Shown in pieces: positions 4,660-63,132 of a DNA stretch of 64,000 nt; position 1 is the stretch's first letter; each line of letters starts with the position of its first letter. The position numbers and the translations under genes were made by a program. Under the pieces are notes generated by a model that was not told the DNA's origin, searched no databases, and saw only the letters and a program-made list of their open reading frames with translations. The stretch is from an uncultured Bacteroidaceae bacterium (GTDB lineage: Bacteria; Bacteroidota; Bacteroidia; Bacteroidales; SM23-62): positions 64,098 through 128,097 of the forward strand of contig CAYOPZ010000001.1 in the NCBI GenBank assembly GCA_964406005.1, given 5' to 3'.

Positions 4660-4671
4660 GGTTTGTTTTTT

Positions 4672-5718: not shown

Positions 5719-5959
5719 CTTCCTCAATCAGCCGGAATTGCCGCAGCATTCCTATGAAATCATAGTAATATTTTTCAAAACCGGCGATGTCTATTTCGTA
5801 CTTACCGGTCATGGCTTCAGAGATTTGCTCTGCAGATTTTCCCTCCTTCAGGTGCTGAAGAATCTCCCGGCCGACAGGATTGACCGAGTAGGATTCCCCG
5901 CTGGTCGGATCGAATATAAAACCGTTCTCGCTGACGGCCATATTGCTTTTTATTTTCAT
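5711..5959 (-). CDS. PqqD-family small protein (peptide chaperone / RRE-like)
   Basis: 82 aa. VNPVGREILQHLKEGKSAEQISEAMTGKYEIDIAGFEKYYYDFIGMLRQFRLIEE matches the PqqD-fold pattern I know (ligand-binding beta strands followed by a winged-helix-like helical part). It is the first gene of the operon. Confidence 0.65.
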   Translation of the reverse strand: MKIKSNMAVSENGFIFDPTSGESYSVNPVGREILQHLKEGKSAEQISEAMTGKYEIDIAGFEKYYYDFIGMLRQFRLIEEDE

Positions 5960-17082: not shown

Positions 17083-17098
17083 GATATCATGTTTTAAA

Positions 17099-18331
17099 TT
17101 ATTTACCCGTTAAATACATAATGAAGGAGGTGGCTGCCTCATGATCGGCCCTCGCTTTTTCTGTTTCAAGGGCGTATTTGAGCACCTGCCGTTCCATCCG
17201 GAGCACTTCTTCGAAATTTGCGCTGTTTGCCGCATAATCAACCTGGAGCAGATCCACGGATTTCCTCGCCAGGTCGGATTGTTCCCGGTTAAGCTTTATT
17301 CGCCTTTCGGCATCCCTGAGATCGCGCCAGGCACCTTCGAACAGGGTTTCAAGCAGGTTGGTTTTGTCAATTTTTTCTTCCTGCCTGGCCGCTTCCATGT
17401 AGATGGCCTCCCCAACCTTGGCCCGGTATTTTTCCCGGTAGAGAGGTATTGAAATCCCGACGGTTGGAAAAACAAAGGCATCCTTCCCTGCCAGGTTGTT
17501 CTCTCCCTTCCCGGTCACCATGTATTCGAACCCTATTGAAAATCCGGGCAGCCCGGACTTCCTTGCCGCCTCCTGTCCGGACTTCAGGGATTCAATCTGG
17601 CGATCCAGGCTCAGCAGCCGGTGGTTCCCTGCCCGGATACTGTCGAGAAGTGCATCTTTATCCCCGGGCAATGCAGTAAGCCGGAGGACATCGGGCAATT
17701 CAACGGTTTCATCGGTTTCGCTGTTAAGCAGATTGTTGAACCTGGTTGTCTGGACACCCATATTATCTTTAAGCAGGGCCAGCTGGTTCTCCAGGTCCCC
17801 GATCTCTATCTCCAACCTGTAGTTATCCACCGCCGATACCAGGCCCGTTTCAATCTTGACAAGCACCAGGTTCCGGAATGTATTCAGGATTTCCAGGTTT
17901 TCCCCGGTAATGCGGATGGCCTGCTGCGTAACATACAGATTGTAATAAGCATCCCGGATATCGTTAAACAGGCTTGATTTTGCTTCTTCGAAGGCTTCGT
18001 ATTTCGCCTCCGCCATCCGGGTTGCGGCATCCGCCCTGTCTCCCAGCATCCCGAACCAGGGAAACATCTGGCTTGCGGAGAATTTGAATTCCTGAGGGCC
18101 CATCCGGGTTTCAACCGGCCTGATGAAATAGCCGAACATCACTTTCGGGTCCGGCAGGGCTTTGACCTGCGGGATGTTTTCCAGGGCGGCAAGATATTCG
18201 TTGAATTTCACCTTAAGCGCAGCATTGTTCATGGCCGACCTTTCCAGGTAAGTGTCGAGGTAATCCTGCGATGCTGCGCTGAATGAAATGAAGGAAATAA
18301 GCAGAACGAATATGAATTTACTGGTCTTCAT
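17099..18331 (-). CDS. TolC-family outer-membrane efflux protein (CzcC-like)
   Basis: 410 aa with a signal peptide and two OEP-type coiled repeats. It overlaps the stop of the RND pump gene by 14 nt. Confidence 0.8.
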   Translation of the reverse strand: MKTSKFIFVLLISFISFSAASQDYLDTYLERSAMNNAALKVKFNEYLAALENIPQVKALPDPKVMFGYFIRPVETRMGPQEFKFSASQMFPWFGMLGDRADAATRMAEAKYEAFEEAKSSLFNDIRDAYYNLYVTQQAIRITGENLEILNTFRNLVLVKIETGLVSAVDNYRLEIEIGDLENQLALLKDNMGVQTTRFNNLLNSETDETVELPDVLRLTALPGDKDALLDSIRAGNHRLLSLDRQIESLKSGQEAARKSGLPGFSIGFEYMVTGKGENNLAGKDAFVFPTVGISIPLYREKYRAKVGEAIYMEAARQEEKIDKTNLLETLFEGAWRDLRDAERRIKLNREQSDLARKSVDLLQVDYAANSANFEEVLRMERQVLKYALETEKARADHEAATSFIMYLTGK

Positions 18332-21300
18332 TGTATTCCGTTTTAGATGTTTCTACAGGTTTCCTGGTTATTTTATTCTCCTGCCACATACTGTAAAGTA
18401 CGGGAACGACAAAAATGGTCAGCACCTGGAATATCATCCCGCCGAACGAAGGGATGGCCATGGGAACCATAATATCCGATCCCTTGCCGGTTGAAGTAAG
18501 TACCGGGATCAGGGCGATTATCGCGGCAGCGGCAGTCATCATGGCCGGGCGCACCCTGATCGAACCCGCTTCCAGTACCGATTTCCTGACCTCTTCCCTG
18601 GTCCTGGGCTTGTTCCTCCCGAAAACCTGTTGCAGGTAGGTGCCTATTATCACCCCGTTATCGGTGGCGATCCCGAACAATGCCACAAAACCCACCCAGA
18701 CGGCAACACTCAGGTTGATCGGGTGCATGTCGAACATATCGCGTATGTTGATCCCCCCTACCGAAAAATTCATGAACCAGTGCTGCCCGTAAAACCACAT
18801 CATCAGGAATCCCCCCGAGAAGGCCACAAAAATTCCCGTGAATATCATGGAGGAGGTGACAACAGACCGAAACTGGAAATACAGGATAAGAAAGATCAGG
18901 ATAAGGGAGAGCGGTACCACCAGCATCAGGCGTTTGGTCGCCCGTATCTGATTTTCGTAATTACCGGTGAACACGAAGCTTACCCCGGGAGGAATTACCA
19001 GTTCCCCGCTTTCTATCTTTTCATCAATGAACTTGCGGGCATTTTCAACGACGTCCACTTCGGCATAATCCGGTTTTTTATCGAAAATGACATAACCCAC
19101 GAGAAAGGTATTCTCACTCTTGATCATCTGTGGCCCCCTCAGGTAGGTTACCTCCGCCAGTTCCCCCAGGGGCACCTGGGCTCCGGCAGGGGTTGGAATA
19201 AGGATCTTTTTAAGATCCTCGGGGTTGTCACGGAATTCACGTGCATACCTAACACGCACCGGAAATCTTTCCCGGCCTTCGACGGTCGTGCTTAGTTGCA
19301 TGCCACCGACCGTGCCGCTGATGGCAGTCTGAAGGTCTTTGATGCTCAGACCGTACCTGGACGTGGCCCCCCTGTTGATCTTCAATTCCATGTAAGGCTT
19401 GCCGACCACCCGGTCTGCAAAAACCGATCTTGGTTCGATGCCTTCGACCTGTTTAAGGTTCCTTTCCAGCTCGAAGCCTGTTTTTTCGATGGTCTGGAGA
19501 TCAGGTCCGAAAACCTTTATGCCCATTGGGGCCCTCATCCCGGTTTGCAGCATGATCAGGCGGGTCTGTATGGGCTGTAGCTTTGGTGCCGACGTCAATC
19601 CCGGAATATTCGCTTCCTTCACGATCTGATCCCAGATGTCATCGGGCGAGGCAATGTTGTCTCTCCACTGCCTGAAATATTCTCCCTTTTTATCCTCTAT
19701 CAGATTATCCCGGTCAATAAGCCGGAAACCGTCAGTTACGGGATTATAGCGGCCCCCGTCCTTTAACACATAAGATTCGTCCCTGTCTACACGGAACCGC
19801 ATCCTGTGCCCGTCTTCATCGAGTATGTATTCCGGTTTGTAATTGATGATATTTTCGAACATAGAGATCGGCGCCGGATCCAGGGCTGAATTCACCCTTC
19901 CCCATTTCCCGACTACCGATTCGACTTCCGGGATTGAATTCACCTTCTGGTCCAGCATGCGTATTACATCTATGTTCTCCTGGACCCCCGAATGCGGCAT
20001 GGTTGTCGGCATAAGCAGGAAAGAGCCCTCATCCAGGGCCGGCATGAATTCCTTTCCTACTCCCGGCATAACCCGGGCGACCGATTTCCATGCCCCGGTT
20101 TCCTTAATGAAATGCGGCATGAAACCGAACATGCGGTCTACTCCCTGCCAGCTGACAATGCCGAAAAGGATAAATACGATGGGTATGGCCAGGAATTTCC
20201 ATTTATTTGCCAGGGACCACCTCAGGATGCTCCGGTAATATCTTACGATGAGCATCAGGGAACCCAGTACGATGGTAATAATGGATATTACGAACAATAA
20301 ATTGGCTGTCAAGCTGTTTTGAGCCCCGAGCGGCATCCAGATCCCGGTCAGGTAGAAAAGGACCACCAGAAGTGCAACCGCGATGTTAATGTATTTCACA
20401 AAATGCCTTTTATTCTCCGGCCACCTGTCTTCCAGCAGGTTATTCATTCCGACGGCAACCAGGGCAAAAGGTATGATCGAGCGGTCAATGACCCCCGCCA
20501 CCAGACCGATGGCTATAAGGATGATGCTCCAGATTCTTCTTGTACTGATTTTCCGGTTCCGCAAGGCAAACAAGATATTCGCCAATGTGGGAATGATAAT
20601 CAGCCCGATCACCAGTCCCGATACCATGGCAAAAGTCTTCGTGAATGCCAGCGGCTTGAACAGTTTTCCTTCTGCAGCCTGCATGGCAAATACCGGCAGG
20701 AAACTTAAAATGGTTGTGGTCAGCGCCGTGAGTACCGCTCCGGCCACCTCGACGGTGGCGTCATAGATCACGGTAAGCAAGCGTTTCCCCCGGGCATCAC
20801 GGTTCTCGGGCATCTCAAGATGCCGGACTATGTTTTCAGTGAATACGATCCCCACATCCGCCATTACGCCGATGGCGATGGCAATGCCGGAAAGGGCCAC
20901 GATGTTCGCATCCACCCCGAAATTCCTCATGACGATAAAGGTCATCAGTACCCCTATTGGCAGCAGGCTGGAAATCAGAAAGGAGGCTCTCAGGTTCACC
21001 ACCAGCACGATCACCACAATGATGCTGATCAGGATCTCCAGGGTCAGGGCTTCTTCAAGGGTACCCAGGGTCTCCTTGATCAGGCCCGTACGATCGTAAA
21101 ACGGTACGATGGTGACCTTCGAAACCGAGCCGTCGTCCAGGGTTTTTGAGGGAAGGCCGGGGGCGATTTCTGCAATTTTATCCTTGACGTTCCGGATCAC
21201 ATCCATCGGGTTGGCTCCGTACCTGGCTACAACGACCCCTCCCACGGCTTCGGCCCCGCCTTTGTCGAGGCCCCCTCTCCTTGTTGCAGGGCCATAATTG

Positions 21301-22145
21301 ACGTGGGCGACATCCCTGAGCATGATCGGCACGTTATCGTTCACGGCGACCACGCTTTCTTCGAGGTCTTCAATGCTTTTTATATATCCCAGCGCCCTGA
21401 CCAGGTATTCCGCCCGGTTGAATTCTATCGTCCTGGCTCCGATATCAAGGTTGCTGTTTTTTACCGCCGCCATGATCTGGGCGACGTTCACCCCGTGGGC
21501 CTTCATTGCATCCGGGTCGATATCGACCTGGTATTCCTTGATAAATCCCCCGATGGAGGCCACCTCGGATACCCCTTCCGCGGAAGTCAGGGAATACCTC
21601 ACATAAAAATCCTGGATGGTACGCAATTCCTGCGGGTCCCATCCGCCCGAAGGATTCCCTTCTTTATCCCTCCCCTCCAGGGTATACCAGTAAATCTGTC
21701 CCAGGGCGGTCGCATCCGGACCAAGCGCGGGAGTGGCACCTTCCGGAAGTGTCCCTGCAGGGAGTGAGTTGAGCTTTTCCAGGATCCTGGTCCTGCTCCA
21801 GTAGAAATCCACATTGTCATTGAAAATCACGTAGATGCTGGACAGCCCGAAGATGGAATTGCTGCGGATGGTTTTCACCCCGGGGATTCCGAGCAGCGAG
21901 GTGGTAAGGGGATAGGAGATCTGGTCCTCGATGTCCTGGGGGGATCTTCCGGGCCATTCGGTGTATACGATTTGCTGGTTTTCCCCGATGTCCGGGATGG
22001 CGTCCACGGGAACCGGGTCCCGGGGCAGCACGCCCAGATCCCAGCCGAAGGGTGCGGTGACCAATCCCCATGCAATGAACCCTATCAGGACGATGAAGGT
22101 CACCAGCCTGTTTTCAAGGAAAAAACGAATGATTCTGTTTAACAT
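18318..22145 (-). CDS. CusA/CzcA-family heavy-metal efflux RND pump, oversized variant (1275 aa)
   Basis: The N-terminus is typical (MLNRIIRFFLENRLVTFIVL). HME-RND-like periplasmic and TM segments run throughout, with an extra hydrophobic block in the middle. Confidence 0.9.
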   Translation of the reverse strand: MLNRIIRFFLENRLVTFIVLIGFIAWGLVTAPFGWDLGVLPRDPVPVDAIPDIGENQQIVYTEWPGRSPQDIEDQISYPLTTSLLGIPGVKTIRSNSIFGLSSIYVIFNDNVDFYWSRTRILEKLNSLPAGTLPEGATPALGPDATALGQIYWYTLEGRDKEGNPSGGWDPQELRTIQDFYVRYSLTSAEGVSEVASIGGFIKEYQVDIDPDAMKAHGVNVAQIMAAVKNSNLDIGARTIEFNRAEYLVRALGYIKSIEDLEESVVAVNDNVPIMLRDVAHVNYGPATRRGGLDKGGAEAVGGVVVARYGANPMDVIRNVKDKIAEIAPGLPSKTLDDGSVSKVTIVPFYDRTGLIKETLGTLEEALTLEILISIIVVIVLVVNLRASFLISSLLPIGVLMTFIVMRNFGVDANIVALSGIAIAIGVMADVGIVFTENIVRHLEMPENRDARGKRLLTVIYDATVEVAGAVLTALTTTILSFLPVFAMQAAEGKLFKPLAFTKTFAMVSGLVIGLIIIPTLANILFALRNRKISTRRIWSIILIAIGLVAGVIDRSIIPFALVAVGMNNLLEDRWPENKRHFVKYINIAVALLVVLFYLTGIWMPLGAQNSLTANLLFVISIITIVLGSLMLIVRYYRSILRWSLANKWKFLAIPIVFILFGIVSWQGVDRMFGFMPHFIKETGAWKSVARVMPGVGKEFMPALDEGSFLLMPTTMPHSGVQENIDVIRMLDQKVNSIPEVESVVGKWGRVNSALDPAPISMFENIINYKPEYILDEDGHRMRFRVDRDESYVLKDGGRYNPVTDGFRLIDRDNLIEDKKGEYFRQWRDNIASPDDIWDQIVKEANIPGLTSAPKLQPIQTRLIMLQTGMRAPMGIKVFGPDLQTIEKTGFELERNLKQVEGIEPRSVFADRVVGKPYMELKINRGATSRYGLSIKDLQTAISGTVGGMQLSTTVEGRERFPVRVRYAREFRDNPEDLKKILIPTPAGAQVPLGELAEVTYLRGPQMIKSENTFLVGYVIFDKKPDYAEVDVVENARKFIDEKIESGELVIPPGVSFVFTGNYENQIRATKRLMLVVPLSLILIFLILYFQFRSVVTSSMIFTGIFVAFSGGFLMMWFYGQHWFMNFSVGGINIRDMFDMHPINLSVAVWVGFVALFGIATDNGVIIGTYLQQVFGRNKPRTREEVRKSVLEAGSIRVRPAMMTAAAAIIALIPVLTSTGKGSDIMVPMAIPSFGGMIFQVLTIFVVPVLYSMWQENKITRKPVETSKTEYNEDQ

Positions 22146-25792: not shown

Positions 25793-27094
25793 TCAGGCCT
25801 GGCCTTTGTATTCGTATCCCAGTCTTTCAATGGTTTCCCTGATCCTGGCCAGATCAATGTTTTCCCCGCTCATGGATACTTTCCCGGATGCCAGGTCCGC
25901 ATTCACGCTTTCCACGCCCACGATCTCACGGACGTTATTTTCCACCGTTGCCTTGCAATGGCTACAGGTCATGCCTTTTACGATAATTTCAATATTTCTC
26001 ATAGCTGGATGGATTTTAAATTCCACGTTTTCCGTTCTTCTGTGTCTTCCGAAAAACCCGGACAGGTATTTCCGGTATAAAGCGTGCAGTATCAGGCCGG
26101 CGAGCAAAAGTCCCGATGCTGTCTGCAGCCACCCGGGCAGGATCCCGTGCACATGCCTGCCGGACTGAATGTCTGAAAGGGGACTCAGGAACCAGTCTCC
26201 CGGCATGAAACCATTCACTATGGCCCCGAAGAAAAAGGCGCCGGCGATGATGGACAGCAGGTACAGGATCAGGGTCCTTCTTCCGAGTACATTTCCTATC
26301 ACTGTCATGGTTGCGGCATTGGTTGCCGGTCCGGCCATCAAAAAGACGATGGCCGCCCCGGGCGACAATCCCTTCAGCATGAGTATGGCCGCGATGGGTA
26401 CCGAGCCGGTGGCACATACGTAAAGCGGAACGGCCACGATCAGGATGAGGAGCATCTCGAGGTATTCATTGCCCAGGTAAGCGGTGAAAAAGCTTTCGGG
26501 CACCAGCACATCGATCAGTGCGGCCAGCAGCAGCCCGATCACAAGCCATTTTGCAATGTCTTCCAGGAATTCAACGAAGGCATATTTCAGCATTCCTGCA
26601 AGGCTCCGGTCGGCATCGTCGTTATTGTCACCCCTGTTCTTTGTTTCATTTTTCCCCGCTTCACGGGTCTTTCCGAAACGGTTGGTTATGAATCCCCCGA
26701 AAATCCCGGTGAACAATGCGATAACGGGCCTGATGATGGCCATGGGAAGCCCGAGAAGCGAATAGGTGACCATGATGCTGTCGAGTCCCGTCTGCGGGGT
26801 GGATATCAGGAAGGAAACCGACGAACCCTTAGAGGCCCCGCTGTTGAAAAAAGAGATGCCCGTGGGGATCACGCCGCAGGAACACAGCGGCAGCGGTATA
26901 CCGATAAGGGCGGCATTGACAACGGAGGCTGAATTGGGCCTGCCCAGGTATTTGTATACCTTATTCCTGGGAAACCAGACATACAGAATGCCGGCGAACA
27001 GGAATCCCAGAAGGAGGTAGGGAGCCATTTCCAGGGTAAGGGCCGCCAGGGCCCCCAGGAATTCCGTTACAAGGTTCAGTATCGTCTCCATCAT
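25793..27094 (-). CDS. Permease (SO_0444-like Cu/Zn efflux / ArsP-like family) with a C-terminal HMA domain
   Basis: It is a polytopic membrane protein with the PLCSCGVIP motif. The C-terminal VKGMTCSHCKATVENNV is a classic GMTCxxC HMA domain. Confidence 0.75.
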   Translation of the reverse strand: MMETILNLVTEFLGALAALTLEMAPYLLLGFLFAGILYVWFPRNKVYKYLGRPNSASVVNAALIGIPLPLCSCGVIPTGISFFNSGASKGSSVSFLISTPQTGLDSIMVTYSLLGLPMAIIRPVIALFTGIFGGFITNRFGKTREAGKNETKNRGDNNDDADRSLAGMLKYAFVEFLEDIAKWLVIGLLLAALIDVLVPESFFTAYLGNEYLEMLLILIVAVPLYVCATGSVPIAAILMLKGLSPGAAIVFLMAGPATNAATMTVIGNVLGRRTLILYLLSIIAGAFFFGAIVNGFMPGDWFLSPLSDIQSGRHVHGILPGWLQTASGLLLAGLILHALYRKYLSGFFGRHRRTENVEFKIHPAMRNIEIIVKGMTCSHCKATVENNVREIVGVESVNADLASGKVSMSGENIDLARIRETIERLGYEYKGQA

Positions 27095-27172: not shown

Positions 27173-28081
27173 TCAGCTCTTGTTGATCATCCCGGTTTCA
27201 TCACAGCACCCGAATTCCATTTGCAGCGTGACATGCTCCACAAGAAATTTTTCATGAAGCATCCGGCTGACCTGGCGGCGCAATGCATCCGTCTTGCTGA
27301 CGGGGATATCTTCCGAGAGGTCTATATGCCCTTCGAAATGGATCTGCCGGTCGTTCAGGCTCCACGCATGTACATGGTGTATATTGCTTATCCCGTCAAT
27401 TTTTTCAACTTCCTTTTTGATGGCTTCCAGGTCAAGTTCCCTTGGAGAGGACTGCATCAGGATATCGAATGAGTCTTTCAGAAGGAGGTAGGTTTCCCGC
27501 AGGATATACAGGCTGATCAATATCGTGATGAAGGGATCGATCCAGTAGATACCGAATTTCCAGATCAGTATCCCCCCTGCAATGACCACAAGGGAAGAAA
27601 GCGTATCCCCGAGAAGATGCAGGTATGCCGCTTTGATGTTGATGTTCTTCCTCGAATCCGGCCGAAGGAGCACCACCGCAATGAGGTTGGCCGCAAGTCC
27701 TACGGCAGCCACGAAAAACATAACGGCCCCCTTGACGGGAGCGGGATTCCGGAACCGTTCAATGGCCTCATATACCAGGAATATGCAAATGGCGGCGAGG
27801 ATCACCGAATTCAGGAAAGCCGCCAGGATCTCCACGCGCTTGTAACCGAAAGTCTTGCGGGCATTCGATTTACGTTTGCTGATCCTGTGGGCGACGTAGG
27901 CCAGCATAACCGCAAGTCCGTCTCCCAGGTTATGTACGGCATCGGAAAGCAGCGCAAGGCTGCCTGATATGATCCCCCCGGCAATTTCCGCGGCAGTGAT
28001 GGCAAAATTCATAAAGACCGCAGCCAGAAGGTTTTTTTCACTGATGCCCGGGTTCGAATGATGATGAGGGACCTCTTTCAT
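27173..28081 (-). CDS. Cation diffusion facilitator (CzcD/ZitB-like) exporter
   Basis: It has HHH near the N-terminus, LLSDAVHNLGD and HLLGD (HxxxD sites), and a CDF cytoplasmic domain. Confidence 0.85.
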   Translation of the reverse strand: MKEVPHHHSNPGISEKNLLAAVFMNFAITAAEIAGGIISGSLALLSDAVHNLGDGLAVMLAYVAHRISKRKSNARKTFGYKRVEILAAFLNSVILAAICIFLVYEAIERFRNPAPVKGAVMFFVAAVGLAANLIAVVLLRPDSRKNINIKAAYLHLLGDTLSSLVVIAGGILIWKFGIYWIDPFITILISLYILRETYLLLKDSFDILMQSSPRELDLEAIKKEVEKIDGISNIHHVHAWSLNDRQIHFEGHIDLSEDIPVSKTDALRRQVSRMLHEKFLVEHVTLQMEFGCCDETGMINKS

Positions 28082-54610: not shown

Positions 54611-56338
54611 TTACATTGTAGCGGAAGCCCTGCCTCCCTTAACGCTTTCGACCTTAACTGTATATTTATTTCCCCCTTTAACGATCCACCTCACCTTGAC
54701 CCGGCTGTGACCGGGGATATTTTCCACTTCAATCCTGGCCGGATTGTCCTTCTGCTCGGTACAGATGTTCATATCCTCGTTGATGACATACATTCCTGCA
54801 ACCACTTCACCGCCTTCAATTGTAACATAATCGGGCGGGTCTATCCTGTACCTGAGATTCTGACCTGAATGAGTGGGCATCATCCGGCGGTTTGCAATTG
54901 TGGCAGTGACCTGTTTAAGGTTTCCTTCGATCTTTACTATCTTAATATCGGATACTTCCAGCTTTGGTGTCTGGTACGCATGGTAGATGCAGAAAGCACT
55001 GTTCCTGTGAGCGTCAGCTTCCAGAAGGAAACCCGGGTGCAGCCTTCCGTAATTCTTGTCAAAACCGCCGATTTCAACCATACCGTACACCGGGTGATCA
55101 TATTCCTCCCAGGGAATGAATGCATCTTCAAATAGCAGTAATTTATCGAATTCATAACTGTCCACGTTGTCTTCATCGTAGAACATCAGATAAGATGTCC
55201 ACAGTTCATTTGAATAGATATAGGTTCCGAGGAATCCGTACCACCAGTCGAGTTCTCCCCCGTATACGGTATACAGGTCATCCCATATGGTAAGCAGGCT
55301 GTAGCCCGGGATCATTTTTTCTCCCACTTTCCCGATCTCGTTCATCACAAATTCATCCGCCCTTGTATAAACTTCGGAGCCACCTCCCTGTATACTCGGT
55401 CCCTTGAGGATCATCCCCCCGGAATTATGGAATGTCTGGGCGCCTGCAATATTCCGATGCTTCAGTCCGAAGTCCCTGACGGCCCTGTTTTCCGGGAAAG
55501 TGAACGGATATTTGTCTGCCCCGTACTGCACATAATCAGGTTCCCAGTTGTAGCCCCAGTCACGGTTTGGATCATAAAAACCCGGTCTGTCCTCGTTTAC
55601 CAGCCCGTCGCCATCGTTATCCAGCCCTTCATATCCGAGCAGCTCATATTCTCCTTTTTCCCCGGGAGCCACACGTATCATTCGCCTGGGGTCGGAAGGA
55701 TCAACCCTGTACTCCCCCTCCGGGTTTTTCCGCCTTATCTGGCTGATCACGCCGTCATTGTTCAGATCATCAAATCCGTCTTCGTCAACCAGTCCGTCGC
55801 GGTCGTCATCCCTGGGCATCATGCCTGACCTGGGGGAGTGCTGGGTATTGGCCTCGTAAATAAAATCTTCACGGGCATCAGGATTTATAGTGGGTATGAT
55901 ATAGAAGACCTTTTCATCGAGAAGCTCATGTATAAAATCATTCTCCCCGTACATTTCGGCAAGGTACCATGCGGTATACATAGCCATCTCCGAACCCTGC
56001 AACTCGTTTGAATGGATGTTCCCGTCGATATAATATCCGGGCTTGCTGCCAGGGTCGAGGTTCCTGTGATTGGTAACGATAAGGACAAGCATGTCCCTGC
56101 CTTGATATGATTTTCCGGCAGATTCCACCTTTACCAGATCGGGATAGGCCTTTTCAAGCTTTCCGGCGAAATCGCTTATGCCTGAATATGTATAATACTT
56201 ATCCCAGCTCATATTAACCTTTGGATTTACAGGCGTGCCGGCAGCCTTGAAGAACAATTCGCTGTCCTGTGCTGAAAATTTCATGCCTATCAGCAATGCA
56301 GCTGTTATCAACAGTATTTTACGGATCTTATTCATCAT
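54611..56338 (-). CDS. Secreted M14-family zinc carboxypeptidase with Asp-rich Ca-binding-like inserts
   Basis: It has a signal peptide, the HxxE motif (GNIHSNELQG), the second zinc His (TFHNSGG), and the inserts DDDRDGLVDEDGFDDLNNDG and LDNDGDGLVNED. Confidence 0.8.
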   Translation of the reverse strand: MMNKIRKILLITAALLIGMKFSAQDSELFFKAAGTPVNPKVNMSWDKYYTYSGISDFAGKLEKAYPDLVKVESAGKSYQGRDMLVLIVTNHRNLDPGSKPGYYIDGNIHSNELQGSEMAMYTAWYLAEMYGENDFIHELLDEKVFYIIPTINPDAREDFIYEANTQHSPRSGMMPRDDDRDGLVDEDGFDDLNNDGVISQIRRKNPEGEYRVDPSDPRRMIRVAPGEKGEYELLGYEGLDNDGDGLVNEDRPGFYDPNRDWGYNWEPDYVQYGADKYPFTFPENRAVRDFGLKHRNIAGAQTFHNSGGMILKGPSIQGGGSEVYTRADEFVMNEIGKVGEKMIPGYSLLTIWDDLYTVYGGELDWWYGFLGTYIYSNELWTSYLMFYDEDNVDSYEFDKLLLFEDAFIPWEEYDHPVYGMVEIGGFDKNYGRLHPGFLLEADAHRNSAFCIYHAYQTPKLEVSDIKIVKIEGNLKQVTATIANRRMMPTHSGQNLRYRIDPPDYVTIEGGEVVAGMYVINEDMNICTEQKDNPARIEVENIPGHSRVKVRWIVKGGNKYTVKVESVKGGRASATM

Positions 56339-56359
56339 TTCGGGTTTATTGTTGTTTGA

Positions 56360-58012
56360 TTATTTCAGCTCGAATGTTATTTCAGCCGATCCGCATTGAA
56401 TCGCACCGATGGTAATGGTATATTTACCTGTTCCCATGACGAGCCAGTTCGTTTCCCTGGTTTCATCGCCGTTTAACCGTTCAAAGGATCCTATCGCCCT
56501 GCCGCTGAGCAACGTAAAATCATTATCCGATTTCAGTACAATTCGCATGTTTTTGACCCACTTTACCCTTTCACCTATTTTACTTGTAGTTGCGAAAACA
56601 CCTTTATTGTGAACCTTAACGGTGATCCGGAAAATATCATTGTCAAGCTTCTCTGTTTCAAGGTCGAGAAACTCCAGTCCGGGATGCATCTTTGCAGCAC
56701 CGGTAATAAAGGTAAAGTTTGATTCTATTAAACTGTCGAGTGACCCGGCAGGGGGAGTGGTCAGTGCAAAAGGCGGAATGCCTCCTACCTCGACCTGTTT
56801 CCCGGGGAAATCGGGGTGGTCAAGCTTTTCCCACGGAATAAAAACATCCTCATAGGAATGATCGGCCGCAAATTTAAGAAAGGAGGCTTCTTTCGATAAT
56901 CCTTTTTCGGCAGGGAACCACCATCCGGGGGTTGAATAACTGTATCTGCCGTAGTGGTAGTAGGCCCATTCCATGAAATTGCCCGCTTCCCTTTCAAATC
57001 CGGGTGAACCGGTCAGTCCTGTAATTTCAAGATATTTTTCAGACATCAGGTTGTTAAGAATTTCATCTTCTTCCAGGATCGTGGTGATTTTTGCGGGCCC
57101 CCTGCTTCTGCCTTCTCCGCTTCCTTCTCCACCTTCTCTGACTTCCCTTGCCTTGAAAGGTTCGCCCAGGTTATCCTGGGGTCCATATGAGAAAACAACA
57201 AATACATTGAAGTGATCATACAGATAATCGGCAACTGCCCTGGATTCATTTTCCGAATTGGCATTAATGCCGGCCAGACGCCCGTATTCTTCATACTCGA
57301 AAGTAAAATTATTGTTAAAGTTCACGCCTCCCTCGGTATCTTCGTTAAAAGAGCCGTCCCCGTCATTGTCTATCCCTTCGGTCAATACAATCCAGTCTCC
57401 TGTTTCCCCTTTGGCAAGGTCCGCTTCTATCATCAGCCTGGGATCATCTGCGTCAGTAATATAAGTTCCCGAAGGATCCTTAATACGCATGAGTGTAATG
57501 ATACCATCCCCGTTCAGGTCCTCATAAGGATCTTCATCGGTTCTGAAATCCCTGTCGTTATCGGTGGGGTTGGCATTGACCAGCCGTTCATACTTCGGAT
57601 TTCCGAAATACTGGCCGGTGGCATCCGGATTGACATTCGGGAAAAGGTAGAATGTTACCTCATCCAGCAGGGATGTGATATCGGGATCACCTGCCTTTTC
57701 AAGGAGCCTGGCGGCAAAACCTGCGACCAACTCACAGCCCAGGGGATACCTGCCATCGATCCCGCCCAGGATGGCTACCCCCGGCTTGCCGTCGGCGTCA
57801 TCCCGGCCGATCTTCAATACCAGGATATCATTGCCTGCAGCAGTCCTTGCAATGGATTCCAAACTGCACAGGTCCGGGTAATTCCCGCTCAGTTCCTTCA
57901 ATATCCGGTTCATCTCGTCGAGGGTATGATAACCCGACCGGGCATTGGCCTGAGAAGTCCAGCATACCACACAGATGGTCATACATAAAATAAACCTGTA
58001 AAGAATTTTCAT
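56360..58012 (-). CDS. Secreted M14-like paralog lacking zinc ligands (probable pseudo-peptidase)
   Basis: It shares the architecture and inserts of its neighbour (DNDRDFRTDEDPYEDLNGDG, IDNDGDGSFNED). However, IDGRYPLGCEL replaces IDGNIHSNEL, and VFSYGPQD replaces TFHNSGGM. Confidence 0.7.
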   Translation of the reverse strand: MKILYRFILCMTICVVCWTSQANARSGYHTLDEMNRILKELSGNYPDLCSLESIARTAAGNDILVLKIGRDDADGKPGVAILGGIDGRYPLGCELVAGFAARLLEKAGDPDITSLLDEVTFYLFPNVNPDATGQYFGNPKYERLVNANPTDNDRDFRTDEDPYEDLNGDGIITLMRIKDPSGTYITDADDPRLMIEADLAKGETGDWIVLTEGIDNDGDGSFNEDTEGGVNFNNNFTFEYEEYGRLAGINANSENESRAVADYLYDHFNVFVVFSYGPQDNLGEPFKAREVREGGEGSGEGRSRGPAKITTILEEDEILNNLMSEKYLEITGLTGSPGFEREAGNFMEWAYYHYGRYSYSTPGWWFPAEKGLSKEASFLKFAADHSYEDVFIPWEKLDHPDFPGKQVEVGGIPPFALTTPPAGSLDSLIESNFTFITGAAKMHPGLEFLDLETEKLDNDIFRITVKVHNKGVFATTSKIGERVKWVKNMRIVLKSDNDFTLLSGRAIGSFERLNGDETRETNWLVMGTGKYTITIGAIQCGSAEITFELK

Positions 58013-58048: not shown

Positions 58049-61000
58049 TTACGACTTATTTTTCTTGCCTGATAATTTTATATGTGCCTCACTGATTTTT
58101 TTATCCGGTAAAACCGATGGGCTGCCGAACATCAGATCTTCCCCGGTGCCGGTTTTCGGGAATGCAATTACTTCCCTGATCGAGGTCTTCTTTTCCAGTA
58201 TCATAATTAACCTGTCTATGCCCCATGCAATACCTCCGTGCGGAGGCGCACCGTATTCAAAGGCCTCAAGCATATGGCCAATGCTTTTTTTCATGTTTTC
58301 CAGGTCATATCCCATGTTTCTGTAGGTCGCCTCAAGTATTGCTTTTTTGTGCGCACGTATCGACCCTCCCCCGATTTCATTGCCGTTAACGACCAGATCA
58401 TATTGCTGGGAAATGATACTTCCTATATTCTTTCCCTCAAGGTGATCCTGCAGGGATCCTTTTACAGGCATCGAGAAAGGATTGTGTGAAAACGTCCACC
58501 CGCCGTTGTCTGTTTCTTCAAACAGGGGGAATTCAATGACCCATGCCGGGTGTAATTCATTTGCCCTGATCAGGTTGATCATTTTTCCCAATTCCAGCCT
58601 CACTTCAGAAAGTGCCTTATTGGCCGTTTTATAATCTGCCGCCGAGAAAAATACAATGTCTCCCGGAATTGCTTCGACCCTCTGAATGATCCTGCCGGCA
58701 ATATCTTCCCCTAAATACTTTATTATCGGAGATTGCAGCTCATTTTCATTTACCATGATATAAGCCAGTCCGCCCAGGCCGTTTTTCCGCGCAACCGCAG
58801 TTAAATGTTCGATCTGCCCTTTCGACAAGCGTTTTTCAGATAAGCTGCCGCCTACCTTTATACATTTTACGATACCGCCTTCATCAATGGGTTTTGTAAA
58901 CACCTGGAAGGAAGTTTCCTTAACGATATCGGTAATGTCTTCCATTTCCAGGCCGAAACGCAGATCGGGCCTGTCTGTGCCGTATTTTTCCATCGCCTCG
59001 TAATACCTGAATACCTTAAATGGAAAAAGCTTCCATTTATTCCCGTAAATCCTTTTGACAATCTCGTTGAATAAATTCGTATTGACGTCAATGACATCCT
59101 GCATGCTCACATATGCCATTTCAATATCAAGCTGGGTAAATTCCGGCTGCCTGTCTCCCCTTGAATCCTCATCCCTGAAGCAACGGGCAATCTGAAAGTA
59201 TTTGTCGAATCCCCCGACCATCAGGAATTGTTTGAATTGCTGCGGGGCCTGGGGTAATGTGTAAAATCTCCCCGGGAATTTCCGGCTTGGAACAATAAAC
59301 TCCCGTGCTCCCTCATCCGTGCCGGAACTTAAGATCGGAGTTTCTATTTCAATGAAATTTTTTTCGTCCAGGATATCCCTGATGAGTTTAATGACCCTGT
59401 GGCGGTTTATAATTGTATTTCTTATCACGGTATTCCTGTGGTCAAGGAACTTGTACTTGAACCTGACATTCTCGGAAGATTTTACCGCTCTTCTTATTTC
59501 GAACGGCAGCGTCCTGGCCGTATTCAATATTTCAAGTTCCGTTGTATCCAGTTCCAGTGTACCCGTTCTTATCCCCGGATTGAAATCATCTTCACTTCTG
59601 TGAATGATCTTCCCGCTTACCATAATTACAGATTCCGGTGATATTTTTGCCAGTTCATCCAGACCGGGAAAGTTCTTTCTGTTTAACCTGACCTGAAAAA
59701 TTTCATGACTGGCATCTCTCAGGTCAATAAAAACAAGCTCCCCGTGATCGCGCACACTCGATACCCAGCCTGAAAGAGTGACCGTTTCAGATAAGTTGCC
59801 GGTTGTGAGTTCAGAAACATAATGTGTTCTGTACCGATCCTTTATTATGATATCGGTCCTTCCCCGCCCGCCGGCAGTGGTATCCCCGGTTTCTTTCGTA
59901 ATTTCTATTCCCGGGCTTGTGTCCGTGCTTGTTTCTTCATCCCTGGTTTCAATGCCGGACAACCTGCCGATGATTTTATCCCGGACAAGCTTTCCTGAAG
60001 CTCCTTTCCCGACCTTCGACATGACCATGCCAACCAGTATGCCGGCCCTTTTCAGGTTCCCTGCTTTTATATCACCGGCAATACCGGCATTCTCTTTAAT
60101 GACCTCTTCAATACTTGATTCAAGCTTTTCATCCGAAATGCTGTTATTCTCGATATAGGTTCTATAATCGAAATCCGGATTATTCAGCAGTTCCCCTGCT
60201 GCATGCTGAAAGAGAACAACCGATATTTTTCCCTCTCTGAACAGAGAAAAAATCTCCGTAAAAGCGGGAATGTTGGTGACTTTATGATACTCTTCCGGCT
60301 TCAGGTTATTTGTCAGTGTTTTGGCAACAAATTTCGGATCGTTGATTTTTTCATTAATGCTTAAAAATATGTGCGACCTGACGGGATCGAACGTAAAGAA
60401 TTTGGCATCCTGGGGCAGCACCCCTCCGCCAATCAGGATTGATTCGACAGGAAAGGGCAATAAACTGCTGTCAACCTGTATTTCCTCAACCGCGCTTTTA
60501 ATATTCACAAGAGGGATATCCGGTTCCTGTGCATACCTGTAATCTGCCGAGAACTCCTTCTTACGCATGGTTTTGGTTTGCTTTAAATCGGCATCAAACA
60601 GAACCGTTGTCTGGTCGGGTCTCGGACTTTTGTGCCTGATGAAATAATCAAGCTGTTTTGACACCTCTTCTGTGATGGCCTCCACCATGAACTTGAACGA
60701 GTTGAGATTCTTGATCTCTGCACGTGGATTCAACTCATTCGTTCCTTTCTTACGAAGGGATACGCTGACGTCTGATTTGAATTCACCTTTTTCCAGGTTT
60801 GCTTCCGAGATCTTTAAATTCTGTACGATGCGCTGAAGGTATTGAGCATAGGTTGAAGCATCCTGTATGCGGTGGATACAGGGCTTGGTAACAACCTCGA
60901 TCAGGGGCACACCGGATTTATTGAAATCGACCAGGGTTACACCCCGTTCATGCACCAGTTTTGCCGCATCCTCTTCGATATGCACCTGTTCAAGCTCAAC

Positions 61001-61387
61001 GGAAAACGTTGTTCTGTCATTCCTGTAACATTCAACCCTCCCATCGGGAATGACAGGTTTCTGAAATTGTGTCAGCTGAAAATTCTTCGGCAGGTCGGGG
61101 TATTCATAGTGTTTCCTGTCCCAGCAAATCAGGGTATTGCTCATACTCGAATGAACCGCCTTGCCAAAATAAATCGCCTTACGGATGGCTTCCTTGTTAA
61201 CAGCCGGAAGAACACCCATCTGACCCGTGCAGACCGGGCATATATTCCGGTTTGGCCGGTCAACATCCTCAGTTGCACAGGAACAGAACAATTTTGTCAA
61301 AGTGTTCAGCCTGATATGGGTTTCAAGGCCGATCACCACTTCCAGTCCATACCGGTCCAGCTTCTCCTCTATGTGATTTAATTCCAT
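58049..61387 (-). CDS. gatB-aspS: In-frame fusion of Asp/Glu-tRNA amidotransferase subunit B (GatB) with a complete bacterial-type aspartyl-tRNA synthetase
   Basis: A single 1112-codon ORF. GatB motifs are GLETHIRL, CPVCTGQMGVLP, YPDLPK, HIEEDAAK, EIKNLNSF, ADYRY and a YqeY-like tail. A roughly 40-aa S/T/D/E/G-rich linker follows. AspRS motifs are RTHYVSEL, VTLSGWVSSVRDHGELVFIDLRD, FRDEDSRGDRQPEFTQLDIEM, a GAD insert, GGGSIRAH and AFPKT. Confidence 0.8.
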   Translation of the reverse strand: MELNHIEEKLDRYGLEVVIGLETHIRLNTLTKLFCSCATEDVDRPNRNICPVCTGQMGVLPAVNKEAIRKAIYFGKAVHSSMSNTLICWDRKHYEYPDLPKNFQLTQFQKPVIPDGRVECYRNDRTTFSVELEQVHIEEDAAKLVHERGVTLVDFNKSGVPLIEVVTKPCIHRIQDASTYAQYLQRIVQNLKISEANLEKGEFKSDVSVSLRKKGTNELNPRAEIKNLNSFKFMVEAITEEVSKQLDYFIRHKSPRPDQTTVLFDADLKQTKTMRKKEFSADYRYAQEPDIPLVNIKSAVEEIQVDSSLLPFPVESILIGGGVLPQDAKFFTFDPVRSHIFLSINEKINDPKFVAKTLTNNLKPEEYHKVTNIPAFTEIFSLFREGKISVVLFQHAAGELLNNPDFDYRTYIENNSISDEKLESSIEEVIKENAGIAGDIKAGNLKRAGILVGMVMSKVGKGASGKLVRDKIIGRLSGIETRDEETSTDTSPGIEITKETGDTTAGGRGRTDIIIKDRYRTHYVSELTTGNLSETVTLSGWVSSVRDHGELVFIDLRDASHEIFQVRLNRKNFPGLDELAKISPESVIMVSGKIIHRSEDDFNPGIRTGTLELDTTELEILNTARTLPFEIRRAVKSSENVRFKYKFLDHRNTVIRNTIINRHRVIKLIRDILDEKNFIEIETPILSSGTDEGAREFIVPSRKFPGRFYTLPQAPQQFKQFLMVGGFDKYFQIARCFRDEDSRGDRQPEFTQLDIEMAYVSMQDVIDVNTNLFNEIVKRIYGNKWKLFPFKVFRYYEAMEKYGTDRPDLRFGLEMEDITDIVKETSFQVFTKPIDEGGIVKCIKVGGSLSEKRLSKGQIEHLTAVARKNGLGGLAYIMVNENELQSPIIKYLGEDIAGRIIQRVEAIPGDIVFFSAADYKTANKALSEVRLELGKMINLIRANELHPAWVIEFPLFEETDNGGWTFSHNPFSMPVKGSLQDHLEGKNIGSIISQQYDLVVNGNEIGGGSIRAHKKAILEATYRNMGYDLENMKKSIGHMLEAFEYGAPPHGGIAWGIDRLIMILEKKTSIREVIAFPKTGTGEDLMFGSPSVLPDKKISEAHIKLSGKKNKS

Positions 61388-62796
61388 CAGATTATTCCCG
61401 TTAAGAATCCGGCAAACTTTAAAATTATCTGCTCCTGGTTTTTAGGGGCCGTTATCTGAATACCCGTCTCCGTTCCGACAGGAGATGTCAGCGTGGGTAA
61501 GCCCCCTAAACTGAAACCCACCGTGAAAGCGTCCGATAAATACATTTCCAGCGGATTATCCAGACTGCTGCCGATTTTCGGCGGAGTAACCGGTGACACC
61601 GGTGAGACGATAATGTCAACCTTCTTGAAATCCCGGTTAAAACTACCGGTGATCTGGTTCCTTAAGGCTCTTGCTTTCAAATAGATTTCTTCTGAATGTC
61701 CGTGGGATAATATCTGGTTTCCCCCGATGATTCTTCTTTTGGTTTCTTCTGTAAAATTCCCGGACCTGGTCAGGGCATAACCCTCTTTTAAGGTTTCGGC
61801 CGTTTGCCTTTCGCCGTAACTCATACCGTCCAGCCGTGCCAGGTTCGAAGCGGTTTCTGCCATGGCCAGAATATAATAGGTCGAAACCAGGATATCGGCA
61901 TCAAAGAAATCCAGTACTTCAACCTCAATATCATATTGCTTCAATCTGTCGATAAGCGTTAAGAAATCCTCCTTGATATTTGGATTCAGACTGCTGTTCT
62001 TTATGAAGCTGTTATAATAGCCTATTCTGAAGCCATCTTCGGGAAATTTTTCTTTAAAGATATCCCCGGAAACCGGCGTGGATTCAATGCTTGTCTGGTC
62101 ATGCCGGTCCTTGCCGCTCATAGTGTTCAGTAAAATGCGGATGTCCTCGAGACTTTTGGAAAGGGGTCCCACACAATCCGTGGAAGATGCGTAAGCCATA
62201 AGCCCGTACCTCGAAATTCTCCCATAGGTCGGCTTCAATCCGTAAACCCTGTTAAAACCTGCAGGCTGCCTGATGGATCCGCCCGTATCTCCCCCGATTG
62301 AAAACAAGGTATATCCCCTGGCCACATTAACGGCACTACCCCCGCTCGAACCGCCGGGAACAAGCGCTTCGTCCAATGCGTTCCTTGCCGGTCCGAAAAC
62401 AGTGTTTTCAGTGCTGCTGCCATGCCCGAAACTATCGCAATTCTCCTTAACCACAGGGATTGCTCCTGCATCAACCAATTTTTGAATGGCTGTGGCGGTA
62501 TAGGGAGATTTATAATTTCTGAGAAAATCCGAACTTGCAGATGCGTTGGCGCCCTGAAGAAGAAATACGTCTTTTACTCCGAAAGGAATTCCTTCCAGCA
62601 GTCCGATTTCATTGCCTGCATTTAACTTCTCATCAACTTTCAGTGCCTGCTCCATAGCTGTATCGGTGAGAAGTAAGTTTGCCGTATTATTCGGACTTCC
62701 CTTCAGTTCTTCAATTTTCTGTTTCACCAGACCGGTACATGAAATTCTGCCTTCCTTAAGATCCTGGTGTACTTTGTTTATTTCCGATTCCATCAT
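61387..62796 (-). CDS. gatA: Asp/Glu-tRNA amidotransferase subunit A (amidase signature family)
   Basis: It has GIPFGVKD, GSSTENTVFGPARN, GGSSGGSA and GGDTGGSIRQPA. I prefer the ATG at 62796 over the TTG at 62808. Its stop shares one nt with the gatB-aspS ATG. Confidence 0.85.
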   Translation of the reverse strand: MMESEINKVHQDLKEGRISCTGLVKQKIEELKGSPNNTANLLLTDTAMEQALKVDEKLNAGNEIGLLEGIPFGVKDVFLLQGANASASSDFLRNYKSPYTATAIQKLVDAGAIPVVKENCDSFGHGSSTENTVFGPARNALDEALVPGGSSGGSAVNVARGYTLFSIGGDTGGSIRQPAGFNRVYGLKPTYGRISRYGLMAYASSTDCVGPLSKSLEDIRILLNTMSGKDRHDQTSIESTPVSGDIFKEKFPEDGFRIGYYNSFIKNSSLNPNIKEDFLTLIDRLKQYDIEVEVLDFFDADILVSTYYILAMAETASNLARLDGMSYGERQTAETLKEGYALTRSGNFTEETKRRIIGGNQILSHGHSEEIYLKARALRNQITGSFNRDFKKVDIIVSPVSPVTPPKIGSSLDNPLEMYLSDAFTVGFSLGGLPTLTSPVGTETGIQITAPKNQEQIILKFAGFLTGII

Positions 62797-62797
62797 T

Positions 62798-63070
62798 CTA
62801 GTCCTCAATTACTTTCGGAACAACCAGAAACCCGTTCTTTTCCCTGGGAAAGTTTTTCCTGATCAGTTCTTTTTCTTTTTCAGGGCATCTTTCAATGACA
62901 TCGCTTCTTAAACCTTCAACAGAAACAGCATCAGCATTTGATTCAGGTATGCCATCTCCTTTATTATCCGGAACCGCTTTTTTTATTACACCGAACAATT
63001 TATCTACCGCTTCTGATGATCTGGCTCCTTTAATGCTGGATAAAAGATCCAGGGGCATTATTTTATCCAT
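62798..63070 (-). CDS. gatC: Asp/Glu-tRNA amidotransferase subunit C
   Basis: 90 aa. The C-terminal LRSDVIERCPEKEKELIRKNFPREKNGFLVVPKVIE matches the GatC tail pattern (LRxD...P...dGyf.VPkv). The position upstream of gatA agrees. Confidence 0.7.
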   Translation of the reverse strand: MDKIMPLDLLSSIKGARSSEAVDKLFGVIKKAVPDNKGDGIPESNADAVSVEGLRSDVIERCPEKEKELIRKNFPREKNGFLVVPKVIED

Positions 63071-63132
63071 TGTTTTAATTTATCCCATTTAAATATTTCA
63101 AATCATTATATATCAAGCAACAAAAGTAATAA

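Follow-up and report, generated by a model that had tools for sequence, protein, structure and literature searches.

A 64,000-nucleotide stretch of DNA from an uncultured Bacteroidaceae bacterium (contig CAYOPZ010000001.1; hereafter the window) carries on its minus strand a gene, gatB::aspS, whose open reading frame (ORF) encodes a genuine bifunctional protein in which a complete GatB is joined to a complete bacterial-type aspartyl-tRNA synthetase (AspRS). Within the amidotransferase GatCAB, GatB is the subunit that binds tRNA and acts as kinase and transamidase, and both partner subunits are encoded directly upstream of the fusion, GatA by a gene that abuts it and GatC by a divergent gatC-like ORF. 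The coordinates of these and of the other features discussed here are collected in Table 1.

Domain structure and operon of the fusion

The fused protein contains five Pfam domains, with GatB_N at residues 17-299 (304.5 bits) and GatB_Yqey at 341-473 (50.1 bits) followed by tRNA_anti-codon at 536-621, tRNA-synt_2 at 639-1079, and GAD at 830-926. Both halves exceed the cut-off of an NCBIfam equivalog: gatB PRK05477.1-2 (NF004012) matches residues 15-476 with 392.3 bits against a cut-off of 338, and aspS PRK00476 (NF001750) matches residues 518-1107 with 702.7 bits against 443, while TIGR00459 gives the AspRS half 639 bits against 374. The first half has the catalytic domain and C-terminal YqeY-like tail of a full-length GatB, and the second has the N-terminal OB domain, class II motifs 1-3, and GAD insertion that define a bacterial-type AspRS. 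The GatB half can be aligned to the last residues of solved GatB chains (residue 476 against 478/482 of Thermotoga maritima GatB, and likewise for Aquifex GatB) and the AspRS half from residue 2-10 of solved AspRS chains. GC content is continuous over the junction, and a stop-free run of 1112 codons is not expected by chance, for which we estimate a probability of ~(61/64)^1112, roughly 1e-23. The initial annotation had described one uninterrupted 1112-codon ORF of unstated strand, GatB-like to about residue 480 with the YqeY-like tail included, a complete bacterial-type AspRS from about residue 520 that begins where free AspRS proteins begin, and a linker with neither Met nor stop. This outline is borne out, with the minus strand added, the boundaries refined to residues 1-476 and 518-1107, and a linker DNA that lacks in-frame ATG, GTG, and TTG codons as well as stops; the strings GILVGMVMSKVGKGASGKLV (YqeY-like tail), SGIETRDEETSTDTSPGIEITKETGDTTAGGRGRTDIIIKD (linker), YRTHY, and AFPKT are all present in the translation.

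The fusion is the last gene of its operon, and the TGA stop of gatA shares one base with the fusion ATG (TGATG). The GatA translation contains the motifs KDVF, GGSSGGS, and GGDTGGSIRQP and scores 422.6 bits against TIGR00132, under the cut-off of 481. Family matches of the gatC-like ORF are weak (TIGR00135, E=8.7e-5; Pfam GatC, E=0.2), and its putative assignment as gatC comes mainly from position and conservation, a homolog with 47-77% identity being found just before gatA in those related loci whose flanks extend far enough. The order gatC-gatA-gatB::aspS is kept in these loci. Upstream of gatC, TACTTTTG is a faint candidate for a Bacteroidota-type -7 promoter element, for which we assume the consensus TAnnTTTG; in such AT-rich DNA the match may be due to chance.

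Table 1. Positions of the fusion gene, its parts, its operon partners, other window features, and comparison loci. Coordinates are those of the window unless a locus prefix is given.
Feature	Position	Strand	Description
gatB::aspS fusion ORF	58049..61387	minus	1112 aa + stop, ATG start, uninterrupted; five Pfam domains, two NCBIfam equivalog matches
GatB part, residues 1-476	59960..61387	minus	catalytic domain, helical domain, YqeY-like tail
Linker, residues 477-517	59837..59959	minus	41 aa, hydrophilic, predicted disordered
AspRS part, residues 518-1112 + stop	58049..59836	minus	OB anticodon-binding domain, class II core, GAD insertion
gatA	61387..62796	minus	469 aa from ATG; alternative TTG start at 62808 gives 473 aa; Pfam Amidase 375 bits
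Divergent gatC-like gene	62798..63070	minus	86-90 aa; ends 2 nt before gatA ATG
TACTTTTG, candidate Bacteroidota-type -7 promoter element	63121..63128	minus	~50 nt upstream of gatC, in 170-nt AT-rich spacer
Two tandem paralogous M14-like peptidase genes	54611-58012	minus	575 + 550 aa, 28% identical; 36 nt downstream of fusion
CopA-type P-type ATPase	7869-10244	minus	metal-resistance cluster
CusB/CzcB-like, TolC-like, CusA/CzcA genes	15211-22145	minus	metal-resistance cluster
SO_0444-family Cu/Zn efflux protein fused to CopZ-like domain	25793-27094	minus	metal-resistance cluster
CDF transporter	27173-28081	minus	metal-resistance cluster
Clostridial fusion loci (P0123, P0422)	L082:6226-11273, L083:6164-11414		gatC-gatA-gatB::aspS order
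P0122 fusion	L084:2138-6586		ENA metagenome scaffold, 27% GC organism

The two halves and the segment that joins them have been conserved very differently. Across 118 aligned full-length homologs, pairwise identity averages 70% for GatB and 75% for AspRS but 15% for the variable linker core (window residues 477-511), which is 22% hydrophobic and rich in E, S, K, and T. The length of this core is nevertheless held at 31-41 aa (median 35), and length held despite sequence drift suggests a spatial requirement. No conserved Met or cleavage motif was found in the 118 linkers. An AlphaFold2 (AF2) model of the single fusion chain, built from an 81-sequence alignment, shows both halves folded (mean predicted local distance difference test score, pLDDT, of 76), with residues 478-510 at pLDDT ~25 and devoid of secondary structure. 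The linker is thus predicted to be a flexible, disordered tether of constrained length.

Across 81 aligned fusion homologs, invariant positions in the GatB half include E22, H24, R91, K92, H136, E138, E139, D140, E164, K226, and N227, among which E22, H24, H136, E138, E139, D140, and E164 account for the site motifs (His of LExH, HxEED, PLxE); we take these GatB residues to correspond to the metal/ATP site of the Staphylococcus aureus GatCAB structure. In the AspRS half, the FRDED, GGGSIR, and GxDR motifs are invariant, with motif 2 represented by F737, R738, D739, E740, and D741 and motif 3 by G1056, D1058, and R1059, as are K719, R1011, and H548 and the residues that we assign to Asp binding. 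By this measure both halves are under purifying selection, and because the catalytic-site residues are invariant in all 81 sequences, both enzymes appear to be active.

Distribution and origins of GatB-AspRS fusions

The fusion is widespread. Among 5.8 billion proteins, we found more than 120 full-length fusion clusters of 1098-1127 aa, originating from NCBI, JGI, ENA, and Logan, that carry all five domains at 67-84% identity, and a genome scan limited to one genome per species gave 246 relatives, of which the best 80 were analyzed further and all span residues 1 to ~1105. Nearest to the window are metagenome-assembled genomes (MAGs) of uncultured Bacteroidales, with 79-85% identity. Carriers are mostly Bacteroidota, with a patchy distribution within the phylum, and include Flavobacteriaceae (Polaribacter, many species of which carry the fusion, Flavobacterium, Tamlana, Flavivirga, and others), Cytophagales, Chitinophagales, Lentimicrobium, Marinilabiliaceae, and one Melioribacteraceae MAG.

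These proteins already bear a name in NCBI, also used in UniRef, 'bifunctional amidotransferase subunit GatB/aspartate--tRNA ligase AspS', and the window protein is 67-71% identical over 99-100% coverage to RefSeq proteins so named (from Jiulongibacter, Marinilongibacter, Urechidicola, Tamlana, Polaribacter, and others). It shares with this family the five-domain architecture, the approximate length (1100-1120 aa), 67-85% full-length identity, and the gatC-gatA-fusion operon, and no structural difference sets it apart; what distinguishes the window copy is its origin in an uncultured Bacteroidales lineage whose nearest genomes show 79-85% identity. The window protein is therefore a further member of a catalogued, apparently uncharacterized NCBI family. 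The initial annotation had known of no described GatB-AspRS fusion and had set its reading against the case of an architecture already common and characterized. The first half of that case applies, as the architecture is common and named, and the claim of novelty is weakened by it; no characterization was found in the literature searched.

The fused AspRS is 41% identical to 6WOM, which we take to be the standalone AspRS of Elizabethkingia (Flavobacteriales), and falls in a separate subfamily, recognizable by QAPQQFKQ and HNPFSMP, to which standalone enzymes also belong. Together, the low identity and the separate subfamily indicate that the fused AspRS did not derive recently from the canonical standalone type, represented by 6WOM and its Saprospiraceae relatives. 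QAPQQ/HNPFSMP was considered as a signature exclusive to fusions and rejected, since standalone AspRS representatives carry it. Longer AspRS representatives with these motifs were likewise considered as AspRS-GatC fusions and rejected: the only such fusion is P0184, which lies outside that clade and is PRK12820-like. The other long AspRS representatives have insertions or extensions of no assigned family, apart from P0169 with its YbaK-like domain. Other AspRS fusions include a HisRS-AspRS protein of 1029 aa (P0135) and AspRS with a C-terminal YbaK/tRNA_edit-like domain (P0132 and P0169, 744-748 aa).

An exhaustive search of 1.84 billion representatives of 50% identity clusters returned only three fused GatB-AspRS proteins, P0121, P0122, and P0123. 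The last of these stands for at least 119 full-length fusion clusters of 1089-1214 aa from Clostridia (Anaerovoracaceae, Aminipila), which NCBI names 'aspartate--tRNA ligase' only. The Clostridial fusions share with the window protein the domain order, the operon order, and a disordered linker, here 35-123 aa long and rich in A, E, and K. They differ in having canonical GatB and GatC and only 33-39% identity to the window halves. Between P0123 and standalone AspRS representatives, AspRS identity is 50-52%, versus 39% to the window half; for GatB, identity of the window half is 41% to a standalone GatB versus 33% to the P0123 half. A neighbor-joining tree of AspRS was rooted on 6WOM, as long branches of P0122 and P0124 caused by mistranslated UGA codons had misled midpoint rooting; in this tree P0123 nests among standalone enzymes, apart from the Bacteroidota fusion clade. 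Because both Clostridial halves are nearer to standalone enzymes than to the halves of the window protein, these comparisons indicate that the GatB-AspRS fusion arose at least twice independently. Two origins with the same architecture, the same orientation, and a similar minimum tether constitute the strongest comparative argument that the tether is useful.

The representative P0122 groups, as a diverged relative, with the Bacteroidota fusion clade. Its gene contains 45 in-frame TGA codons that mostly align with conserved Gly, which indicates that its organism reads UGA as Gly (genetic code 25). An asparaginase-family, GatD-like protein of 399 aa is encoded 25 nt upstream of the fusion in place of gatA, and neither gatA nor gatC was found on the 9-kb scaffold; the locus may encode a GatD-like/GatB hybrid amidotransferase.

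A proposed tethered transamidosome and its alternatives

The best solved-structure match of the AspRS half is the Aspartate--tRNA(Asp/Asn) ligase of the Pseudomonas aeruginosa transamidosome (4WJ3, 492 bits). The His of the window motif RDHG (H548) aligns with a His in 4WJ3 and in 4RMF, chains that the PDB names Aspartate--tRNA(Asp/Asn) ligase, and its position is occupied by Leu in the Thermus thermophilus Aspartate--tRNA(Asp) ligase and by Lys in 6WOM. This His is invariant in the 81 aligned fusions, and RDHG is present in at least 114 of 120 sequences. The anticodon-domain His, equivalent to P. aeruginosa H31, reportedly contributes to tRNA(Asn) recognition. The L1-loop, RSEDDFNPGI, matches neither the non-discriminating nor the discriminating pattern. 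As tRNA specificity is not reliably readable from sequence, we take the His and the 4WJ3 match as no more than a hint that the AspRS half is non-discriminating.

Bacterial GatCAB recognizes the U1-A72 pair of tRNA(Asn). That pair is given for tRNA(Asn) in the Bacteroidetes entries consulted in a 547-genera survey (PMC4206432), and the entry for Polaribacter sp. MED152 in its Table S1 lists no asnA, no asnB, one gatCAB, one asnS, one glnS, and a tRNA(Asn) with U1-A72, which is what one would expect were the operon a source of asparagine. Of 14 Bacteroidetes surveyed, 12 lack gatCAB, and GlnRS together with a discriminating GluRS is found in nearly all (PMC3927822). From this combination of GlnRS, discriminating GluRS, and the general absence of GatCAB, the operon is most likely a self-contained, Asn-specific accessory module for tRNA-dependent asparagine synthesis.

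The reading that best accommodates the conserved operon, the catalytic residues, the constrained disordered linker, and the independent second origin is that the gatC-gatA-gatB::aspS product would form a covalently tethered Asn-transamidosome with a tether of ~35-41 residues, and we regard this as likely. The fusion would be co-transcribed with gatC and gatA and is probably translationally coupled to them. As AspRS is a homodimer, we expect a particle of composition (GatC-GatA-GatB~AspRS)2, in which each AspRS subunit would carry one amidotransferase. In such a particle, tRNA(Asn) would be aspartylated by the AspRS half, and the same tRNA would be bound by the tethered GatCAB; the Asp-bearing acceptor end would then leave the AspRS site for that of GatB, where it would be phosphorylated and amidated with ammonia made by GatA from glutamine. 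Asn-tRNA(Asn) would leave the particle, and no free Asp-tRNA(Asn) would reach EF-Tu. The covalent tether would replace weak tRNA-dependent protein contacts, making association independent of both concentration and tRNA. The initial annotation had suggested a permanently tethered Asn-transamidosome; the physical basis of that suggestion stands, with structure, operon, catalytic residues, linker, and second origin all in agreement, and the function is what we infer from it. A more far-reaching version holds the operon to be a portable Asn-synthesis module with a dedicated second non-discriminating AspRS, permanently tethered to its amidotransferase and operating as an obligate channeling machine for a mischarged tRNA, with at least two origins, a minimum tether of ~31-35 residues dictated by how the tRNA is geometrically handed over, and GatCA apparently replaced by a GatD-like glutaminase in the UGA=Gly lineage. 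We advance this version tentatively, as something short of an even prospect.

Several observations weigh against the tethered transamidosome. The His signature is common to bacterial AspRS generally (70 of 84 representatives with a readable motif), and because of this the RDHG His is weak evidence for tRNA(Asn) charging. No tRNA(Asn) gene is present in the window, where the only tRNA is tRNA-Met, and 60 related loci likewise showed no linkage of such a gene to the operon. The AF2 model shows no defined GatB-AspRS interface or fixed orientation (predicted template modeling score, pTM, of 0.50). GatC is barely recognizable and GatA falls below its NCBIfam cut-off, for which reasons we regard the amidotransferase as divergent, though both subunits are kept across fusion-carrying loci. 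A full-text literature search found no paper that describes or tests any member of the fusion family, although a mention in Suzuki 2015 or Sheppard & Soll 2008 is possible. A standalone AspRS of the carrier species was also sought with P0188, the representative closest to 6WOM (64% identity), as the query; the search gave Saprospiraceae-type proteins with no species overlap. The survey entry for Polaribacter sp. MED152 counts one aspS, by a method that could have counted either gene (PMC4206432). In 80 loci, the 10 kb flanking the fusion on each side contained no second AspRS. A second, standalone AspRS elsewhere in carrier genomes is nonetheless the option we lean toward, because carriers are patchily distributed and the fused AspRS falls in a subfamily apart; that the fusion is the only AspRS of these genomes is the less probable option, by no means a negligible one.

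Alternative explanations begin with the ORF itself. The merging of two separate genes by a frameshift or lost stop, a sequencing or assembly artefact that the initial annotation had asked to see excluded in the linker region, might be suspected from the uncultured source of the window and from its closest genome match, an uncultured Bacteroidaceae MAG derived from nanopore reads (L004:8579-11432, 85% identity), in which frameshift-like breaks affect gatA and the GatB N-terminus. Those breaks are probably long-read consensus errors and not biology. The identical protein is encoded, with gene order unchanged, on an independently assembled Logan contig; among 81 loci, each from a different species, 78 have an open frame of more than 1090 codons (the two clear exceptions are one contig end and one frameshifted nanopore MAG), isolate genomes and one complete chromosome (Tamlana fucoidanivorans NZ_CP074074.1) among them; and none of the aligned homologs has a stop codon in its linker. 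The artefact is effectively refuted by these data, and its remaining probability is negligible. An intact ORF could still give rise to separate GatB and AspRS by linker proteolysis or internal initiation, and an exposed linker of predicted disorder would be open to proteases. This outcome seems very unlikely, since the window linker offers no in-frame ATG, GTG, or TTG, the 118 linkers share neither a Met nor a cleavage motif, and a constrained length argues that the linker serves as a linker. The two halves might also be unrelated in activity, with the amidotransferase half serving Gln-tRNA(Gln) or the AspRS half strictly discriminating, given that bacterial GatCAB is generally dual-specific in vitro and given the difficulty of reading tRNA specificity noted above. 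However, GatB has been fused specifically to AspRS, and twice independently, which points to the Asp/Asn pathway, and Bacteroidetes with GlnRS and discriminating GluRS are expected to contain no Glu-tRNA(Gln) substrate (PMC3927822); we consider unrelated partners marginally more improbable than a processed ORF.

The alternative that deserves most attention, though we judge it unlikely, accepts the fused protein and dispenses with channeling: the fusion would be the sole housekeeping AspRS for tRNA(Asp) and tRNA(Asn), joined to gatB by stop loss and kept for 1:1 co-expression. Neighboring operon genes fuse easily, and the gatCAB-aspS order occurs in two unrelated lineages; the absence of a fixed interface from the AF2 prediction and the single aspS listed by the survey for Polaribacter MED152 (PMC4206432) would also suit this alternative. 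Yet linker length is held at 31-41 aa in Bacteroidota and is never less than 35 aa in the Clostridial family despite free drift, which suggests a spatial requirement. A housekeeping origin also sits poorly with a fused AspRS that is only 41% identical to the Flavobacteriales standalone enzyme 6WOM and belongs to another subfamily, and with carriers that are scattered through a phylum whose surveyed genomes mostly lack gatCAB. The distinct subfamily and patchy carriers are more in keeping with a module that was added than with replacement of a housekeeping gene, and the tethered transamidosome remains the reading we prefer.

Genomic surroundings, related systems, and significance

Among the large ORFs of the window that were scanned, about half of the total, none is asnS, glnS, asnA, asnB, or a second aspS, and none encodes any other aminoacyl-tRNA synthetase; those elsewhere in the window encode metal-efflux systems, a DNA primase, and other functions. 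In the M14-like peptidase pair immediately downstream of the fusion, Pfam Peptidase_M14 covers only the N-terminal ~100 residues and NCBIfam gives no match, and these genes were not found beside the operon in related genome loci. A dense metal-resistance cluster occupies window positions 7869-28081 on the minus strand. At 1098-3296, also on the minus strand, a 732-aa ORF has a urea-transporter-like N-terminal part (residues 16-309) and, at about residues 438-500, an M23-type peptidoglycan endopeptidase segment, an unusual pairing. Next to it on the same strand (3313-5727) a PLP (pyridoxal phosphate)-dependent decarboxylase, FslC/LysA-like with scores under the cut-offs, lies beside an ATP-grasp ligase, and the two may constitute a small amine or siderophore-type biosynthetic pair.

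The proposed assembly can be placed among known transamidosomes. Bacterial-type (GAD-containing) transamidosomes have been described as dynamic and tRNA-dependent (PMC3367201; PMC9499178). Those of P. aeruginosa (4WJ3) and Helicobacter pylori resemble the window system in combining a bacterial-type, GAD-containing AspRS with GatC, GatA, and GatB for the same proposed chemistry, but they consist of separate proteins in dynamic, tRNA-dependent association, whereas GatB and AspRS of the window are one polypeptide. The T. thermophilus transamidosome (3KFU) offers a parallel of a different kind, an Asn-dedicated AspRS with GatCAB in an organism that also has AsnRS and GlnRS (PMC4206432). Its AspRS is archaeal-type, lacks GAD, stands as a protein by itself, and has been demonstrated to be a second AspRS, in contrast to the bacterial-type, fused enzyme of the window.

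Covalent links between related components have precedents. The AspRS-GatC fusion NF009460/PRK12820 (full name 'bifunctional aspartyl-tRNA synthetase/aspartyl/glutamyl-tRNA amidotransferase subunit C'; example P0184) is a natural, already catalogued link between AspRS and a GatCAB subunit, but its partner is GatC at the AspRS C-terminus, not GatB at the N-terminus, and its AspRS is of another lineage. Membership of the window protein in NF009460 was considered and rejected, as it scores 489.4 bits against a cut-off of 1379, matches profile positions 13-614 of 723 with its AspRS part only, and has no C-terminal GatC. In the Deinococcus GlnRS-YqeY fusion, a synthetase of the Asx/Glx system bears a covalently joined tRNA-binding module similar to the GatB tail (PMC1865053); the YqeY-like domain alone is fused, boosting tRNA binding by an enzyme of the direct pathway, and there is no amidotransferase catalytic domain.

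Part of what makes the GatB-AspRS family worth attention is practical. IMG labels the fusion proteins 'aspartyl-tRNA synthetase' only, and some NCBI records name GatB only or AspRS only. The 547-genera gene-count survey gives one aspS per Bacteroidetes genome and makes no mention of the fusion (PMC4206432).

The architecture itself is already catalogued, and we regard the finding as of moderate interest, its value being that of an unstudied natural experiment in the substrate channeling of mischarged tRNA. Indirect charging carries a risk, in that escaped Asp-tRNA(Asn) would put Asp at Asn codons; the bacterial transamidosomes known so far contain it by means of transient complexes that depend on tRNA. 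A natural single-chain GatB-AspRS, present in hundreds of species and invented at least twice, provides a ready system in which to ask whether tethering improves fidelity or efficiency. The fusions bear as well on the tether length needed for tRNA hand-over and on the spread of a complete Asn-synthesis module among bacteria that already have AsnRS.

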